64,000 nucleotides of DNA from an uncultured Flavobacterium sp. (GTDB lineage: Bacteria; Bacteroidota; Bacteroidia; Flavobacteriales; Flavobacteriaceae). The stretch is from positions 351 to 64,350 of the forward strand of contig CALFIG010000254.1 of the NCBI GenBank assembly GCA_937876455.1, in the 5' to 3' direction. The position numbers were made by a program, and so were the translations under genes. Below are positions 9,001 through 39,876 of this stretch, in pieces; positions within the stretch are counted from its first letter, which is position 1; the number at the start of each line of letters is the position of its first letter. The notes beneath the pieces were generated by a model. It was not told where the DNA came from. It made no database searches and saw only the letters and a list, made by a program, of their open reading frames with translations.

Positions 9001-9312
9001 TTTGATGATTTTTGTTAATGACCAATACATAAATAAAATAGTAAAGGCACTCGAAAATACAGAAGTCATGTTAACCATCAGTGCAATATGCTCTTTACTA
9101 GCGGCAAACATTGCAAAAAAAGCGCCTATCATTTGAAATAATGGTGCGCCAGGAGGGTGACCTACTTCAAGTTTGGCAGCAGTGGCTATATATTCTCCGC
9201 AATCCCAAAAACTCATTGTAGGTTCTACGGTTAAAGTATAGGTAATTAATGCAACGGCAAATGCTGTCCAACCTAATATTGTATTCCACTTATTGTAATT
9301 AAATGACATCAT
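6085..9312 (-). CDS. DUF2723 / TMEM260-like GT-C-fold membrane glycosyltransferase
   Basis: N-terminal TVEPTMSFWDCGEYIATAAKLEVGHPPGAP signature, many TM helices, and the GDNDTFPLW motif typical of Bacteroidota DUF2723 proteins. Confidence 0.9.
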   Translation of the reverse strand: MMSFNYNKWNTILGWTAFAVALITYTLTVEPTMSFWDCGEYIATAAKLEVGHPPGAPLFQMIGAFFAMFAASKEHIALMVNMTSVFSSAFTILFMYWSLTKIIKKIATHKTEWNDNIGKITLGASLIAALSYTFTDSFWYNASEAEVYAMASLFIAILFWLGLKWEENIENERGNKWLILISLVIGLSFGVHFMALLTIPSIGLLYYFKKYKNITVKGFIIANAVIVAILLFIFKLLLPYTLAFFAKTEIFMVNTIGLPFNSGTIFAFLLIIGFFYFGLNYTKKKGHASYNTLLLCTLFVLIGFSTWIMLPIRANSNININENKPSDAAEVLAYYNREQYGEQKLFYGSQYSVMFSGLDKENPYQDDKPNYERDSKTGKYIITNNFKNAKQNYDGAHNTILPRMWSEEHAKNYMIFTKPLEFRIDPEAFVDEETGEMNEEQMGQMTEIASDFRKAYSEKKVDLDGYLEFLKTYGDYLIVEKPTISDNLQFMFEYQFGYMYFRYLMWNFVGRQNDLQGNYESLEGNWLSGIPFVDNWLLDNQSELTSDMKNNKGRNAYFFLPFILGLIGMYFHAKHEWKSFYVLLVLFLFTGLALKIYLNERPFEPRERDYALVGSFYVFAMWIGVGVYAIYQYALKYISPRVALPAVLAATLLASPILLASENWDDHDRSGKYTAVAMAKAYLDSCDKNAILFTIGDNDTFPLWYLQEIEGYRTDVRIVNTSLLATDWYIDEMKMKSNASEPLPISFEHSDYVGDKRNYSLFIEKTKDTIDLNLMLDFLKDDRSKREMNNGQFVHYYPSDNIKVKVDKNTIIKNKVVSSKYYKDIVPEIKMRLKGGALYKNRLMMLDIFNQNNWKRPIYFSPGSFGADDYIWMKEYLQLDGMVYKLVPIKTPINEENPYELGYIDSDKMYNNVMRWEWGNSGSSKIYHDPETRKNALSYRGNLSRLMEVLIEEKKFDKAQNIINIAMKNLPIDYFEYYTTVEPFAEGYYKMGKTAEARNILNQLIKKRQEKIKFFKSQSEKQKIFYKMDIYREIELYRSLLMLAKENNDSEYYNQERIKFNSYNELMGNYKRENE

Positions 9313-15338: not shown

Positions 15339-15941
15339 ATGCAATTCGACATTCAAAACACCGAATCTTCGGCTTTATATAAATTATTGACAGGAACTGT
15401 CATTCCAAGACCTATCGCTTGGGTAGCCACTATTGATGAAAATGGAATTGATAATTTGGCTCCGTTTTCCTTTTTTAATGTCGTTAGTGAGGACCCGCCT
15501 CACATTATGTTTTCAACTGTTCGAACGGGAAATAAAAATAAAGACACGTTAAATAATATTCTCGCCAATCAGCAATTTGTAGTCAATTTAGTTACGGAAG
15601 ATGTTGTAGAACAAATGAATACTACTGCACAATCCGTTGCGGCTGATGTCAATGAATTTGAATTAGCAAACGTAACACCAATAGAATCCATTTACATCAA
15701 ACCAAAACGAGTAAAAGAAAGTTTGGTGCAATTTGAATGCGAAATGGTACATCATTATTTTATCGAAAAGCATCAAAAGGGAGGCGCTTGTATTATCATT
15801 GGAAAAATTATTACCATGCATATTGACGATTCAATTTTGATGGAAAATCATAAAATCAATTTAGAAAAATACAAACCTGTTGCGCGTTTAGCAGGTTCAA
15901 ATTATAGTAAATTAGGAGAAATATTCTCCATTAAAAGATAA
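15339..15941 (+). CDS. Flavin reductase-like FMN-binding protein
   Basis: PRPIAWVAT...NLAPFSFFN...KDTLNNI...FVVNLV and C-terminal ARLAGSNY pattern. Confidence 0.9.
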   Translation: MQFDIQNTESSALYKLLTGTVIPRPIAWVATIDENGIDNLAPFSFFNVVSEDPPHIMFSTVRTGNKNKDTLNNILANQQFVVNLVTEDVVEQMNTTAQSVAADVNEFELANVTPIESIYIKPKRVKESLVQFECEMVHHYFIEKHQKGGACIIIGKIITMHIDDSILMENHKINLEKYKPVARLAGSNYSKLGEIFSIKR

Positions 15942-15981
15942 TTTAATTATCAATTATCCATTGTTAGTTATCCATTAAAAT

Positions 15982-18360
15982 ATGAAAATAACAGTTATAG
16001 GTGGTGGTCCAGGCGGACTTTACTTTTCGATATTAACCAAAAAAGCAATGCCACATTGCCAAATCGATATATACGAAAGAAACAAACCCGATGATAGTTT
16101 TGGATTTGGGGTAGTGTTTTCAGATGAAACCTTAGGCGAATTTTTAAAACGCGATATGCAATCGTATGAGTTAATCCGAAGTAAATTTGCGTATTGGGAC
16201 GATATTGTAGTAGCTCGAGATGGTGAAGAAGTAAGTATTGCTGGAAATGGTTTTTGTGGCTGTTCTCGTAAAACGCTCCTCCAATTGCTACAACAACGTT
16301 GTGTAGAAGAAGGTGTAAATTTGCATTTTGAACAAAATGTAGAGGATTTATCGCAATTCGAGGATTCAGATATAATTTTAGCTTCTGATGGAATTGCAAG
16401 TGCTATTCGTACAAAATACCAACAAGAATTCGGAACGAAAATTGAAGTAAAGAAAAACCGATTCGTTTGGTTAGGCTCAACAAAACCGCTTGACGCATTT
16501 ACCTATTTTTTTAGAAGTACACCGCATGGAACGATTGTTGCTCATACCTATCAATACGAAGAAGGCATGAGTACTTGGATTTTTGAATGTAGTGACGAAA
16601 CATGGCAAAAACATGGTTTTGAAGTAACAAATGAAGCAGATACGATGGCAAAAATCGCTGAAATTTTCAAAGAGGAATTAGACGGTCATCCGTTAATTTC
16701 CAATAAATCGCATTGGCGTCAATTTCCGCATGTTACAAATGAAAAGTGGCATCATAACAACATCGTTTTATTAGGCGATGCCAAAGCCACAGCTCATTAT
16801 TCTATTGGTTCAGGAACAAAATTAGCCATGGATTGTGCCATTGGTTTATCGGATGCCGTAATAGCCAATCCAACTAATGTGCAAGCTGCTTTTGAACACT
16901 ACGAAAAAACCCGAAGAAATACGGTAGAAATGATTCAATATGCTGCAGTCGTTTCTTTAGATTGGTTTGAAAATATGGATCGTCATATGCAACATTCGTT
17001 TCAGCAATTTGCATTTGGTTGCATGACGCGTTCTAAAAAAGTAACGTATGAAAATTTACGCTTAAGAGATAGTTCTTTTACTGATAAGGTTTTAGCAGAA
17101 TTTTTATCTTCGAGAACCTCAGATAATAATTTTAGCAAAAGTGTGTTGCCAGAGGCACTCGAAGCCAACAGTTCAAATCAAAAAGCGTTGCCAGAGGCTC
17201 TCGAAAGCAAAAGTGCTGCGTTTTCAAAATTTAAACTAAGAAATATAGAATTACAAAATCGTATCGTAATGTCGTCAATGGGGCAATATTTGGCCGAAAA
17301 CGGATTGGTGAACGATTGGCATTTTCAGCATTACACATCTAGAGCTGTGGGTGGTTTAGGATTAATTCTTGCCGAAATGACAGCTGTTTCTGACACAGGA
17401 AGAATTACAGAAGGTTGCGCAGGAATTTATACCGAAAATCAAGTAAACGCTTGGAAACGAATTACTGATTTTATTCACAAATATACCCAAACTAAAATCG
17501 GAATTCAAATAGGGCATTCAGGAAGAAAAGGTTGTTCAAAAATTCCTTGGGAAGACAAATTTCAGAGTAAAAAATGGGAGTTACTTTCGGCTTCTGCTAT
17601 TCCGTTTAATGAAAATCTAAATCCCGAAACTTCGGGGCCGAAAGAGATGACTTTAGCAGATATGCAATTGGTTAAAAGTCAATTCGTTCAAGCAGCTAAA
17701 AATGCAGACGAAGCTGGTTTTGATATGATTGAATTACAAGCGCATCATGGCTTTTTATTGGCATCTTTTTTGTCGCCATTGACTAATATTCGTACCGATG
17801 AATTTGGAGGAAGTGTTCAAAATCGATTAAAATATCCATTAGAGGTTTTTACCGCCATTCGGGAAGTATTTCCAAAAGAAAAACCAATTTCAGTTCGAAT
17901 TTCAGCAACCGATTGGGCAGAAAACGGAATTTCAGAACAAGATGTTTTGGTAATTTCTAAAGCGTTTAAACAGGCAGGTGCCGATATAATTAATGTTTCT
18001 ACAGGAAATACCGTGGCGCACCAAAAACCAATTACAGGAAGAATGTGGCAAACGCCTTTTTCAGATACGGTTCGAAATACCGTTAATATTCCAACAATTA
18101 CCGCAGGAACAATTCAAGATATCGACCAAATTAACACCATTCTTTTAAACGGAAGAGCCGATTTAGTAGCGCTAGGTCGACCTTTATTGTTAGATACTAA
18201 TTTTGTGAGAAATGCGCAAGCGTATGAACAATTTCAAGCAAATGATATTCCAAATCCATACAAAATGGGTGTTTCGCATTTGTATCCACTAAAAGCTTCA
18301 GAACGAAAACAAGCAGAAGGTATGAAAAAAGCATTGAAACCGAAAAGCAATAAATTATAA
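15982..18360 (+). CDS. Bifunctional salicylyl-CoA 5-hydroxylase / anthraniloyl-CoA monooxygenase-like protein (FAD monooxygenase fused to an OYE-like domain)
   Basis: GGGPGGLY, FGFGVVFSD and LLGDAKATAHYSIGSGTKLA in the N-domain. The C-domain is an old-yellow-enzyme TIM barrel (NIRTDEFGGS..NRLK, GRADLVALGR). Confidence 0.9.
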   Translation: MKITVIGGGPGGLYFSILTKKAMPHCQIDIYERNKPDDSFGFGVVFSDETLGEFLKRDMQSYELIRSKFAYWDDIVVARDGEEVSIAGNGFCGCSRKTLLQLLQQRCVEEGVNLHFEQNVEDLSQFEDSDIILASDGIASAIRTKYQQEFGTKIEVKKNRFVWLGSTKPLDAFTYFFRSTPHGTIVAHTYQYEEGMSTWIFECSDETWQKHGFEVTNEADTMAKIAEIFKEELDGHPLISNKSHWRQFPHVTNEKWHHNNIVLLGDAKATAHYSIGSGTKLAMDCAIGLSDAVIANPTNVQAAFEHYEKTRRNTVEMIQYAAVVSLDWFENMDRHMQHSFQQFAFGCMTRSKKVTYENLRLRDSSFTDKVLAEFLSSRTSDNNFSKSVLPEALEANSSNQKALPEALESKSAAFSKFKLRNIELQNRIVMSSMGQYLAENGLVNDWHFQHYTSRAVGGLGLILAEMTAVSDTGRITEGCAGIYTENQVNAWKRITDFIHKYTQTKIGIQIGHSGRKGCSKIPWEDKFQSKKWELLSASAIPFNENLNPETSGPKEMTLADMQLVKSQFVQAAKNADEAGFDMIELQAHHGFLLASFLSPLTNIRTDEFGGSVQNRLKYPLEVFTAIREVFPKEKPISVRISATDWAENGISEQDVLVISKAFKQAGADIINVSTGNTVAHQKPITGRMWQTPFSDTVRNTVNIPTITAGTIQDIDQINTILLNGRADLVALGRPLLLDTNFVRNAQAYEQFQANDIPNPYKMGVSHLYPLKASERKQAEGMKKALKPKSNKL
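17106..17210. repeat. Three copies of a REP-like hairpin (loop wGAGGcwCTCGAA) inside the hydroxylase coding sequence
   Basis: ATCT-TCGAGAACCTC-AGAT (17106-17124, reverse orientation), TGTTGCC-AGAGGCACTCGAA-GCCAACA (17144-17170), TTGC-CAGAGGCTCTCGAAA-GCAA (17188-17210). Confidence 0.75.
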
Positions 18361-21265: not shown

Positions 21266-22249
21266 ATGACATTCAAAAAATTCAAAGCCGCTACTGTTCA
21301 AACCTCACCTGTATTTCTAAATGTAGAAAAAACAGTAGATAAAGCCATTTCTTTCATTAAAGAAGCAGCAAACAATCAGGTAAAATTAATTGCTTTTCCT
21401 GAAGTATTTATTTCTGGATATCCCTATTGGAATTGGATCATGACACCCGTTCAAGGCAGTAAATGGTATGAAACATTATATAAAAATTCGGTTGATGTAA
21501 CAGGACCTGAAATCAAGAAATTATGTTTGGCTGCTAAAGAAAACGATATTCATATTGTTATAGGAATCAATGAAAGAGGTTCTAGCTATGGCGAAATTTA
21601 CAATACCAATTTAATAATTGATAACAAAGGCGTTATCATCGGAAAACACAGAAAGTTAGTGCCTACTTGGGCCGAAAAACTGACGTGGACTTCTGGTGAT
21701 GGTTCTTCGTTAAAAGTATATGATACCGAAATAGGGCCTATTGGAACCTTAGCGTGTGGCGAAAACACCAATACATTAGCACGGTTTACGTTACTTTCTC
21801 AGGGCGAATTGATTCATATTGCGAATTACATTTCACTTCCGGTTGCACCACCAGATTATGATATGGCTGAAGCGATTAAAATTCGTGCGGCTGCACATTC
21901 TTTTGAAGGAAAATTATTTACGATTGTGTCGTGTTCCACGGTTTCTCAAGAAATCAAAGATGCTTTACGTGCAGATGTGCCAAATGTAGATGAATTATTA
22001 GACAGAAAAAGTTCAGCTTTCTCAAGTTTTATTGGTCCAAATGGCGCTGTCATCGGGCAACCTTTAATTGATGAAGAAGGAATAGTATATGCCGAAATTG
22101 ATTTAGAAAAATGCATCCAACCGAAACAAATGCACGATATTTTAGGGCATTATAACCGATTTGATATTTTCGATTTGAGAGTAAACACCGCTCCCACACG
22201 TAAAATCACGTTTATAGACAATCACGAAGAATTTAATAAAGATAAATAA
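21266..22249 (+). CDS. Nitrilase-superfamily carbon-nitrogen hydrolase
   Basis: Catalytic triad context FPEVF (Glu), HRKLVPT (Lys), LACGEN (Cys). Confidence 0.9.
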   Translation: MTFKKFKAATVQTSPVFLNVEKTVDKAISFIKEAANNQVKLIAFPEVFISGYPYWNWIMTPVQGSKWYETLYKNSVDVTGPEIKKLCLAAKENDIHIVIGINERGSSYGEIYNTNLIIDNKGVIIGKHRKLVPTWAEKLTWTSGDGSSLKVYDTEIGPIGTLACGENTNTLARFTLLSQGELIHIANYISLPVAPPDYDMAEAIKIRAAAHSFEGKLFTIVSCSTVSQEIKDALRADVPNVDELLDRKSSAFSSFIGPNGAVIGQPLIDEEGIVYAEIDLEKCIQPKQMHDILGHYNRFDIFDLRVNTAPTRKITFIDNHEEFNKDK

Positions 22250-22280
22250 TTGTTGACTGAGGCATTCGAAGTCAACAATT
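22248..22280 (+). repeat. REP-like hairpin of the same family as the copies inside the hydroxylase
   Basis: Perfect 10-bp stem AATTGTTGAC/GTCAACAATT around the loop TGAGGCATTCGAA. Confidence 0.8.
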
Positions 22281-22293
22281 TAAAATAAAAAGT

Positions 22294-23406
22294 ATGGAAA
22301 CAAATAATTTTTCAGACGACCAATATGGAAGAGCACGAGTTCAAGATTCCGAAGAATTAAAAGCCTATTATAAAGAATTGGAAACGCTTGGTGCGGGTGC
22401 TTTATGGACTGTCGCTAATGATATTGAACCTTGGGAACCTCGTTCTTCATCGATTCCTATGTTGTGGAAATACGATGATTTACGCGAATTAGTACTAAAA
22501 TCATCCGAATTAGTAACGCCCGAACAAGCAGGTCGAAGAGTTGTTTATTTAGTAAACGACAAACGTAAAGATGTTTCGGCAGCAGTGGGTTGGTTGTACA
22601 CCGGAATTCAAGTTACACGTCCGGGAGAGTTTACTTCGGCACACAGACATCGTGCTTCAGCCTTGCGTTTTATTATGGAAGGCGAAAAAGGCTATACCGT
22701 TGTAGATGGAAATAAAATTATACTTGAAGTGAACGATTTTGTCATTACTCCAAATTCTACTTGGCATGAACATGGTGTAGAAGAAGGTGGAAAAACCTGT
22801 ATTTGGCAAGATGGTTTAGATATTCCATTGGTAAATGCTTTGGAAGCGAATGATTATGCGGTTTATGATGGCAAACAAGAATTGGTAAAACCATTAAATT
22901 TTTCACCTATTACCTATGGCTGCGCAGGATTAATCCCAGCAGATAATACGTGGGATAAACCGTATTCTCCGCTATTCAAATATTCTTGGAAAAATGTTTA
23001 TCCAGCGTTATTAGAAGCTCAAAAAGTAAATGAAGTCAATCCGTATGACGGGATTTTCATGCAATATTCGAATCCGTTAACAGGCGGACATGTGATGCAA
23101 ACGATGGGAGCTGCGATGCAATTGTTACCGGCTGGTTTCAAAGGGAAAGCTCACAAACATACAGGTTCGTTTGTGTACCAATGTGCGAAAGGAAAAGGAT
23201 TTTCTATCATCAACGGACAACGTTTCGATTGGAAGGAAAGAGATATTTTCTGTGTTCCGAGTTGGGCTTGGCACGAACACCACAATTTATCCGAAACCGA
23301 AGATGCTTGTCTTTTTCAATTCAACGATTTACCAGTAATTGAGAGTTTAGGGCTTTTTCAATCAAGAGAATTAACAGAAAACAACGGACATCAGCCAATT
23401 CAATAA
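22294..23406 (+). CDS. Gentisate 1,2-dioxygenase-like bicupin ring-cleavage dioxygenase
   Basis: AHRHRASALRF and TPNSTWHEH Fe(II)-binding cupin motifs, WQDGLDIP, and a second cupin (AHKHTGS, VPSWAWHEH). Confidence 0.88.
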   Translation: METNNFSDDQYGRARVQDSEELKAYYKELETLGAGALWTVANDIEPWEPRSSSIPMLWKYDDLRELVLKSSELVTPEQAGRRVVYLVNDKRKDVSAAVGWLYTGIQVTRPGEFTSAHRHRASALRFIMEGEKGYTVVDGNKIILEVNDFVITPNSTWHEHGVEEGGKTCIWQDGLDIPLVNALEANDYAVYDGKQELVKPLNFSPITYGCAGLIPADNTWDKPYSPLFKYSWKNVYPALLEAQKVNEVNPYDGIFMQYSNPLTGGHVMQTMGAAMQLLPAGFKGKAHKHTGSFVYQCAKGKGFSIINGQRFDWKERDIFCVPSWAWHEHHNLSETEDACLFQFNDLPVIESLGLFQSRELTENNGHQPIQ

Positions 23407-39610: not shown

Positions 39611-39767
39611 GTGTATATACTAAAAAAGGTACAGTAGTTTTAGATACCAGTCCTTCAAGGTCTAAAATAGAATAATATACTCATATAAAAATACGCTCCT
39701 TGTTGTAAAGCGTACTAACTATAATCTATCAAAACAATTCCACGGGTTATAACTTCTATACGTGGAG

Positions 39768-39848
39768 TATAGCCGCGATTGAAGTGGTATCTTTATTGCT
39801 TTGGGATGGATAAAGCCGCAATAAAATAAAGCGGAAAGCGCGACTATA
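39768..39848 (+). ncRNA. Probable Flavo-1 RNA motif copy
   Basis: TAGCCGCGATTGAAGTGGTATCTTT...[TTTATTGC/GCAATAAA hairpin]...ATAAAGCGGAAAGCGCGACTATA. This fits the Flavo-1 pattern as I remember it (TAGCCnnnATkGAAGCGGyATCyTT...ATAnAGCGGAmAGnnn) with GCG/CGC pairing. Not verified by covariance search. Confidence 0.6.
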
Positions 39849-39876
39849 AGTCGAATGTACACTAACTAAGTGCTTC

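Follow-up and report, generated by a model that had tools for sequence, protein, structure and literature searches.

Hairpin repeats in the interdomain linker of a Flavobacterium fusion enzyme and the association of their family with a small GIY-YIG gene

A 64,000-nt stretch of DNA from an uncultured Flavobacterium sp. (assembly GCA_937876455.1, contig CALFIG010000254.1, positions 351 to 64,350; hereafter the window) encodes a fusion enzyme whose interdomain linker carries three in-frame copies of a Bacteroidota hairpin repeat. The history that we consider likely is the insertion of a doublet and the duplication of one unit, the repeat belonging to a mobile family linked to a small GIY-YIG gene. 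Covariation among aligned copies shows that the hairpin family is real and selected for structure. The two-way association between this family and a gene for a GIY-YIG protein of ~95 amino acids (aa) is strong and constitutes a new result: the literature searched, which was of limited reach, holds no description of the hairpin motif or of a GIY-YIG/hairpin partnership. We infer that the hairpins are mobile from presence/absence polymorphism, as close orthologues carry no copies, one doublet, or two tandem copies; the GIY-YIG nuclease may be what mobilises them.

Hairpin copies and linker alleles

Exactly four significant hairpin copies are present in the window. They were detected with a covariance model (R1) built from 71 sequences, of which 65 flank GIY-YIG genes in unrelated metagenomes and six come from the window or its orthologues. 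Each copy spans ~37 nt and has a conserved 13-nt loop, (T/A)GAGGYWYTCGAA. The 12-nt core GAGGCWCTCGAA occurs five times in the window with at most one mismatch, against 0.16 expected, and no shuffle out of 100 reached five. The fifth core match (9044-9055) is without a stem and has a covariance-model E-value of 0.19; it was treated as chance. The host gene, its linker and the four copies are as follows.

15982-18360, plus strand: host gene, a single open frame of 792 aa that holds all three linker copies
17104-17214, plus strand: variable linker, codons L375-S411 (37 aa), defined by DNA alignment and the linker types of orthologues
17097-17133, minus strand: hairpin copy 1, an inverted repeat (36.3 bits, E = 3e-10)
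17139-17175, plus strand: hairpin copy 2 (34.8 bits), core at 17152-17163
17181-17217, plus strand: hairpin copy 3 (32.8 bits), core at 17194-17205
22246-22282, plus strand: intergenic copy (41 bits, E = 6e-12), perfect 10-bp stem, loop TGAGGCATTCGAA

The three linker copies each have E <= 5e-9 at about 33-36 bits. They are interdomain because codons 375-411 lie between the VioD-like domain (aa 1-352) and the old yellow enzyme (OYE) domain (aa ~411-763), the limits being taken from Protein Data Bank (PDB) structures. The core of copy 1 is at 17109-17120, where the minus strand reads GAGGTTCTCGAA. In motif orientation its stem is AATTATTATC / GATAAAAATT, with 9 of 10 pairs formed, nested in 20-nt arms (17090-17109 and 17121-17140), and it is translated as LSSRTSDNNF. 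Copies 1 and 2 form a (-)(+) doublet, 43 nt apart, similar to the REPINs formed by paired repetitive extragenic palindromic (REP) sequences. Copy 2 is translated as VLPEALEAN, and its counterpart in the orthologous locus L003 has a perfect 11-bp stem, GAACTGTTGGC / GCCAACAGTTC. Copies 2 and 3 make up a 42-nt direct tandem repeat (17138-17172 and 17180-17214), 80% identical over 35 nt, with GTTGCCAGAGGC and the 5' stem GTTGCC in common; copy 3 is translated as ALPEALESK, and its stem has decayed to TTGC/GCAA.

The covariance model and the core count recover what the original prediction, made from the window sequence, had listed: three linker hairpins and a fourth, intergenic copy with a 10-bp stem. 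Its description of the stems fares less well. Copy 1 was given a short ATCT/AGAT stem, but the actual stem has 9 of 10 bp and the copy is inverted. The stems were also said to differ among the copies. They do vary, and they pair across the family, but copies 2 and 3 are a tandem duplicate, and their stems are not independent.

The intergenic copy lies between a nitrilase-like gene (stop at 22249) and a gentisate 1,2-dioxygenase gene (start at 22294). Its predicted RNA fold has a free energy of -12.7 kcal/mol (z -5.26), and the terminator scan gave no match to it. Rfam has no family for the four hairpins. Like them, Flavo-1 (RF01705) is a repeated hairpin-shaped element of Bacteroidota. Its model and consensus differ from theirs, and it was rejected as an identity for them, as the gathering-threshold scan of the window matches only 39767-39849 (Flavo-1 RNA motif, 56.3 bits), a segment without the GAGGC loop. 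In three loci of the family (L082, L009 and L107), the tip of a Flavo-1 hairpin carries an insertion of ~49 nt, a GAGGC hairpin whose stem has 16 bp, so that one repeat lies within another.

Linker length is discrete among orthologues. We typed the segment from F374 to AAF in 120 Flavobacterium orthologues that are 86-98% identical, and read the construction of the alleles from the DNA of one locus per type (L002-L005). Orthologues at 87-92% identity have linkers of 12, 23, 27 or 37 residues, while the remaining protein is ~90% conserved.

Type A, NDNCNVNIKNQS, 12 aa: commonest type, no hairpin copy
Type A', TDNCHSELVSES, 12 aa
Type B, LSSRASDNNFTKNALPEALEGKS, 23 aa: inverted (-)(+) pair
Type C, YQELLAEALEANSSNQKALPEALEGKS, 27 aa: two (+) copies in tandem, with a perfect 11-bp stem in the first
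Type D, as in the window, 37 aa: the inverted copy of type B plus the two copies of type C

The types differ in length by +33, +45 and +75 nt, all multiples of three; relative to the shortest orthologues (12 aa), the window linker has 75 extra nt, or 25 codons. A neighbour-joining ordering of 121 orthologues on non-linker sequence left the types unseparated, with B and C interleaved and A and A' interleaved, and gave no polarity. This is suggestive of recombination between strains. Distant homologues were therefore used for polarity. At 31-50% identity these have unrelated linkers of 15-25 aa, and PEALE occurs in none. Together with the orthologue type without hairpins, this indicates that the hairpins are lineage-specific additions. 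It also bears out the original prediction on the alignment of orthologues, in that the commonest linker is a 12-aa form without the hairpin and the distant homologues are without PEALE.

Occupancy of the linker and of the intergenic site is independent. Both sites are occupied in the window and in L003, only the linker in L002, only the intergenic site in L005, and neither in L004. The intergenic site carries the GAGGC hairpin in L003, L005, L036 and L073, and another palindrome in L002 and L004. This other palindrome (L002 ~15470-15545; L004 ~15905-15985; equivalent to window 22250-22290) is ~70 nt long, GCCACGGATTATAAGATTTTCACGGAT...AATCCTTTAATCTGTGGC, and looks like a third repeat family.

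The coding copies are drifting in both loop motif and peptide (PEALE, PDALE, PETLE, PENLE, TQPLE), which argues against strong selection on either. Type B forms one imperfect hairpin of 66 nt (in L002: -27.4 kcal/mol, z -4.87). The type A linker (z -0.52) and the window's own linker (z -1.16) fold no better than shuffled sequence. The window itself belongs to a 127-kb metagenome contig (ENA ERZ650243 NODE_37). Other contigs carrying the type D allele come from independent freshwater, riverine and wastewater runs, one of them a metatranscriptome. Contigs from four independent runs hold no linker indel variants, although rare variants are possible beyond the contigs, and their sole difference is a C>T change at 17156. 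This change turns PEALE into PEVLE and falls in the core motif of copy 2. It is fixed in contigs of three out of four other runs (metagenome or metatranscriptome), and protein P0001 has it too.

The type A' linker (L005 11135-11160, peptide CHSELVSES) contains GTCATTCTGAACTTGTTTCAGAATCT, an exact 26-nt match to an intergenic hairpin that follows a peptidase gene in an unrelated Bacteroidia genome (L012 7006-7035). The same linker position thus also holds a second hairpin-repeat family, in frame.

The repeat family and its GIY-YIG neighbour

The hairpin belongs to a family that is mainly extragenic and mostly found in Bacteroidota. A scan with the pattern TRNCTGAGGCWYTCGAAGNYA over one genome per species (596 Gb) found it in at least 120 genomic stretches. 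With ~69 chance matches estimated, this raw count is not evidence of enrichment; the evidence lies in the stems and the taxonomy. Among the matches listed, hosts are mostly Bacteroidota (Flavobacterium, Chryseobacterium, Aquirufa, Chitinophagaceae, Crocinitomicaceae and Sphingobacteriaceae), with a few from other phyla (Desulfobotulus, Chitinispirillaceae). A stem of at least four perfect pairs is present in 87% of the listed copies, against ~12.5% expected from the pattern. Only 25 of the 210 exact cores among the matches listed lie well inside open reading frames (ORFs) of 200 aa or more, mostly as array read-through.

Stem pairing is maintained by compensatory change. When copies are gathered with no condition on the stem, their consensus is CGGTGGC-TGAGGCTCTCGAA-GCCACCG. 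In alignment A4, all seven stem pairs have compensatory changes, and 86.6% of cells are paired, compared with 60.6% in shuffles and 27-52% in slid controls. Covariation scores 0.591, compared with 0.148 for shuffles, of which 0 of 500 scored higher. In its general form the element is 25-37 nt long, with a 5-11-bp stem of free sequence closing a 13-nt loop, T-GAGGCWYTC-GAA.

Neighbouring copies have preferred arrangements. There are 131 (-)(+) pairs and 53 (+)(-) pairs, and the (-)(+) doublets fold into long hairpins; same-orientation tandems have a modal spacing of 42 nt. The window reproduces both arrangements, with its doublet at 43 nt and its tandem at 42 nt. Long tandem arrays of up to eight units occur in L010 (6468-6824), L091 (~560-860) and L021 (1718-1914), with periods of 42, 42 and 44 nt. 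Miniature inverted-repeat transposable elements are defined by terminal inverted repeats and a target-site duplication, and derive from a transposase-encoding insertion sequence. Inverted doublets are present here, but the alternative alleles at the linker and intergenic sites hold other sequence, and no clean empty site shows the ends or a duplication.

These results support the original prediction of a structure-selected repeat with a conserved loop and interchangeable stems; the repeat recurs elsewhere, mostly outside genes. A linker conserved across orthologues, together with a motif repeated nowhere else, would have counted against the prediction, and we found neither. Its view that a flavobacterial family is creating protein sequence is right as to in-frame additions, but the family is not confined to flavobacteria.

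Other proteins also carry the hairpin in frame. In Mfd of Hyunsoonleella flava, the hairpin-bearing segment has 62 aa, compared with a modal 34-39 aa in orthologues that are 70-87% identical. This segment, between ...EFGT and PQPxFNKQF, is a hotspot: other Flavobacteriaceae (P0271-P0273, P0327 and P0374) have different insertions of 20-28 aa there, with peptides typical of other hairpin repeats (IASE..SRND, PFDFAQDRP and SGHPEPALPAGRLVSGS). In an E2 acyltransferase linker the hairpin is translated as VASSASAT, and two homologous PP2C phosphatases carry it in one loop of the protein, in opposite orientations, translated as VTEALEGT and TSRASATS. Addition of residues at permissive sites is thus a recurrent effect of the family. 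For annotation, the hairpin copies yield spurious ORFs and length polymorphisms in conserved proteins.

A small GIY-YIG gene is the recurrent neighbour of the hairpins. An eight-copy array in L010 abuts such a gene, and homologues (63-78% identical; tblastn) are present in 14 of the 120 motif-selected loci among the matches listed, about 80-200 nt from a hairpin in all 14. A (-) copy follows the gene in 11 of the 14 loci (+282 to +317) and a (+) copy precedes it in seven (-57 to -147). The gene is therefore bracketed by inverted hairpins, often by whole doublets (e.g., L103). Unbiased clustering of the ORFs within 600 nt of hairpins, again among the matches listed, places GIY-YIG first, in 14 loci, as the one strongly recurrent neighbour, followed by an ABC transporter in five and HsdS in four. 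No transposase cluster was found among these ORFs, though no explicit Y1-transposase profile search was made. The original prediction had proposed looking for a REP-associated tyrosine transposase (RAYT) or another cognate nuclease; a candidate nuclease is indeed there, but it is a small GIY-YIG protein and not a RAYT.

The association also holds in the reverse direction. Among 80 metagenome loci picked by GIY-YIG protein similarity alone, 58 contain the core, with about 286 matches against an estimated 3 or so expected by chance. All of these matches fall between -750 and +1100 of the start codon, with none inside the gene and none further out. The protein-selected loci without the GAGGC core have variant-loop hairpins at the same position (TGAGCTTGTCGAA, TGAGCGGAGCCGAA and TGAGCGTAGTCGAA). 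In 59 of 74 cases the loop class agrees with that of the nearest neighbour by protein similarity, compared with 36.8 by permutation. Variant-loop hairpins in L126-L205 (e.g., L151, L160, L192 and L172) give read-through peptides such as FDKLS and FGSAQ.

The GIY-YIG protein has 94-100 aa, matches PF01541 (E = 4.6e-17) and has invariant Y6, Y16, R26, H30 and E63. Its PDB matches are 1zg2 (E = 2.6e-20), 1ywl (E = 3.7e-15) and, weakly, SLX1 (E = 1.5e-3). A stand-alone domain of ~90-100 aa resembling BH0048 and EF2693, it belongs by definition to the UPF0213/Slx1-like group. It reaches 17.8 bits on TIGR01453, a model of group I intron endonucleases whose cutoff is 56. In eukaryotes, Slx1 acts as a structure-specific nuclease, a property that would suit recognition of a hairpin by the GIY-YIG protein. 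The UPF0213 proteins 1zg2 and 1ywl are similar to the hairpin-associated protein, and have no recorded function or DNA partner. Minimal prokaryotic GIY-YIG domains have been placed in the Slx1 lineage (Dunin-Horkawicz et al.).

GIY-YIG genes and arrays often adjoin the type I restriction-modification gene hsdS (L010 5145-7113, L030 3149-4700 and L026 47-1391). In L026, the HsdS C-terminus reads through hairpins (...VASRASATAESRASAP...). In L010, the GIY-YIG ORF continues through the array, which would give the protein a repetitive C-terminal tail.

Origin of the linker hairpins

The reading that we consider likely is that the linker hairpins belong to a mobile family linked to the GIY-YIG gene. 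The hairpins would be non-autonomous elements or target sites of a GIY-YIG nuclease that acts in trans and may recognise folded DNA through the loop. A doublet would have inserted into the interdomain linker, a permissive site, in a lineage of Flavobacterium, and one unit would later have been duplicated by slippage or array expansion, with only frame-preserving, stop-free outcomes expected to survive. The 25 added residues are probably neutral passenger sequence, and the linker insertion looks like tolerated selfish DNA.

Several observations weigh against this account. No transposition, excision or cleavage event was observed, and no clean empty/occupied pair defines the element ends or a target duplication. 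The copy 1 stem partly overlaps sequence of the hairpin-free alleles (GAATTT...GATAA), which leaves the insertion boundaries ambiguous. By tblastn and hmmsearch, the window contains no GIY-YIG gene. The concordance of loop class with protein similarity may simply reflect shared ancestry of entire loci, and 15 loci hold more than one class. The second, unrelated hairpin family in the type A' linker could mean selection for any hairpin and not neutrality. Finally, the GIY-YIG gene could itself be parasitic, homing into the hairpins instead of spreading them.

More tentatively, and at somewhat less than even odds, the GAGGC hairpins may be part of a wider superfamily with the loop T-GAG-N3-6-YCGAA, the non-autonomous partner of the ~95-aa UPF0213/Slx1-like GIY-YIG protein, which would recognise the loop in its folded form and either mobilise or maintain the repeats. 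The loop variants seen are GAGGCWCTCGAA, GAGCTTGTCGAA, GAGCGGAGCCGAA and GAGCGTAGTCGAA. If true, this would explain many of the odd short peptides (PEALE, SRASAT and FDKLS) in Bacteroidota protein linkers.

The alternative that survives best, which we nevertheless regard as doubtful, makes the GIY-YIG protein a free-standing homing endonuclease with the hairpin as its target, the hairpins being spread by host recombination, slippage or another enzyme. This would suit a gene that sits between hairpin doublets and is not fixed within one element, that is far outnumbered by the hairpins, and that often lies beside hsdS, a typical site of selfish insertions. The proteins are also 70-80% identical across loop classes, and their specificity may not co-vary with the loop. 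However, the 94-100-aa protein is without the DNA-binding extension that gives GIY-YIG homing enzymes their target specificity: it has the catalytic domain found in I-TevI-type homing endonucleases, but no joined DNA-binding domain. The inverted flanking hairpins mirror the RAYT/REP layout, and no other recurrent enzyme is found near the hairpins.

It is unlikely that the hairpins are instead kept for an action in the operon mRNA, such as a pause at the domain boundary or a role in RNA processing or stability, with any hairpin sufficing and the repeat families merely the source. Most alleles do hold some hairpin at the linker, either GAGGC (B, C and D) or the second family (A'), and the nitrilase/dioxygenase spacer holds either a GAGGC hairpin or the ~70-nt palindrome. 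The stem of the intergenic copy is preserved across species by compensatory changes (AATTGTTGAC to AATTGGTGAC), and type D is a stable allele in independent metagenomes and also occurs in a metatranscriptome contig. However, the commonest allele, A, and the window linker both fold like shuffled sequence (see the z-scores above), a single transcript holds copies in both orientations, and the coding copies are decaying in loop and stem. The intergenic copy is not terminator-like, and L004 does without the GAGGC family at either site.

That the linker is an ordinary low-complexity PEALE-helix repeat, tandemly duplicated under protein selection and only coincidentally hairpin-like, is very improbable: a 42-nt tandem duplication does link copies 2 and 3, and EALE is common as a helical peptide, but the linker copies score 33-36 bits on a model built mainly from unrelated metagenomic copies, copy 1 is a reverse complement with a different peptide, copy 2 forms a perfect 11-bp hairpin in L003, other proteins read the element in other frames or orientations (VASSASAT, TSRASATS and VTEALEGT), and the peptide is unconserved among orthologues.

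The family has much in common with the REP/REPIN-RAYT systems of Proteobacteria. Both comprise short, multi-copy, mostly extragenic imperfect palindromes that occur as inverted doublets and in arrays, both have a nuclease gene bracketed by inverted copies, and both have occasional intragenic copies in frame, as described for GTAG/CGTC REPs (PMC3733652). REPs are defined by a GTAG or CGTC tetranucleotide at one end of the palindrome (PMC3733652), whereas the stem flanks of the present hairpin have no conserved tag, neither GTAG nor CGTC. What is conserved here is the 13-nt loop, in place of stem and tag. The associated gene encodes a GIY-YIG (UPF0213) protein of ~95 aa and not an HUH/Y1 (IS200/IS605-type) transposase. 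Bacteroidota are absent from the phyla listed for GTAG repeats (PMC3733652). Membership of the REP/REPIN-RAYT group was rejected on the missing tag, the conserved loop and the GIY-YIG gene.

The closest parallel for the coding copies is in Rickettsia. Rickettsia palindromic elements (RPEs) are palindromic selfish DNA of about 100-150 nt, known only from Rickettsia, that sit in frame in genes at permissive surface or linker positions and leave the protein intact; they are not known to have a nuclease of their own. The hairpin shares with RPEs the in-frame addition of residues in coding regions. It differs in its length of 25-37 nt, in its unrelated sequence, and in its distribution among Bacteroidota and a few other phyla.

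In-frame palindromic insertions were known before from Rickettsia RPEs and some GTAG/CGTC REPs. The linker would be a documented instance from Bacteroidota, with an allelic series that is still segregating (none, doublet, tandem copies, doublet plus tandem), which makes it a usable natural experiment on the creation of protein sequence by selfish DNA. The GIY-YIG association is the more consequential result. If the nuclease acts on the hairpins, the REP/RAYT lifestyle would have arisen a second time, independently and with a different nuclease fold. The widespread orphan family UPF0213 would also gain a testable function, and the protein would provide a DNA-hairpin recognition module that is loop-specific and stem-independent.

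Host enzyme and gene cluster

The host protein is a fusion of a VioD-like flavin adenine dinucleotide (FAD) monooxygenase and an OYE-type flavin mononucleotide (FMN) oxidoreductase, and resembles salicylyl-CoA 5-hydroxylase. It matches PF01494 (FAD_binding_3) and PF00724 (Oxidored_FMN) in Pfam. Against NCBIfam NF006101, the bifunctional salicylyl-CoA 5-hydroxylase/oxidoreductase, it scores 969 bits over aa 1-777, under the curated cutoff of 1078. An AlphaFold2 model from a shallow alignment has a mean predicted local distance difference test (pLDDT) score of 35.6, and is uninformative on disorder in the linker.

The host gene is part of a gentisate-pathway cluster. The genes downstream encode an aryl-CoA ligase, a thioesterase, the nitrilase-like protein, gentisate 1,2-dioxygenase and an FAH-family hydrolase. 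The domain architecture and the neighbours (aryl-CoA ligase, thioesterase and gentisate 1,2-dioxygenase) fit salicylyl-CoA 5-hydroxylase; the JGI name for orthologues is anthraniloyl-CoA monooxygenase.

A smaller length change lies within the OYE domain. At 17614-17637 the window has NENLNPETSGPKEM where most orthologues have NEN-SDSPKEM. This is a 12-nt gain, also in frame, and it creates a perfect 6-bp hairpin, CCCGAA-AC-TTCGGG, at 17623-17636.

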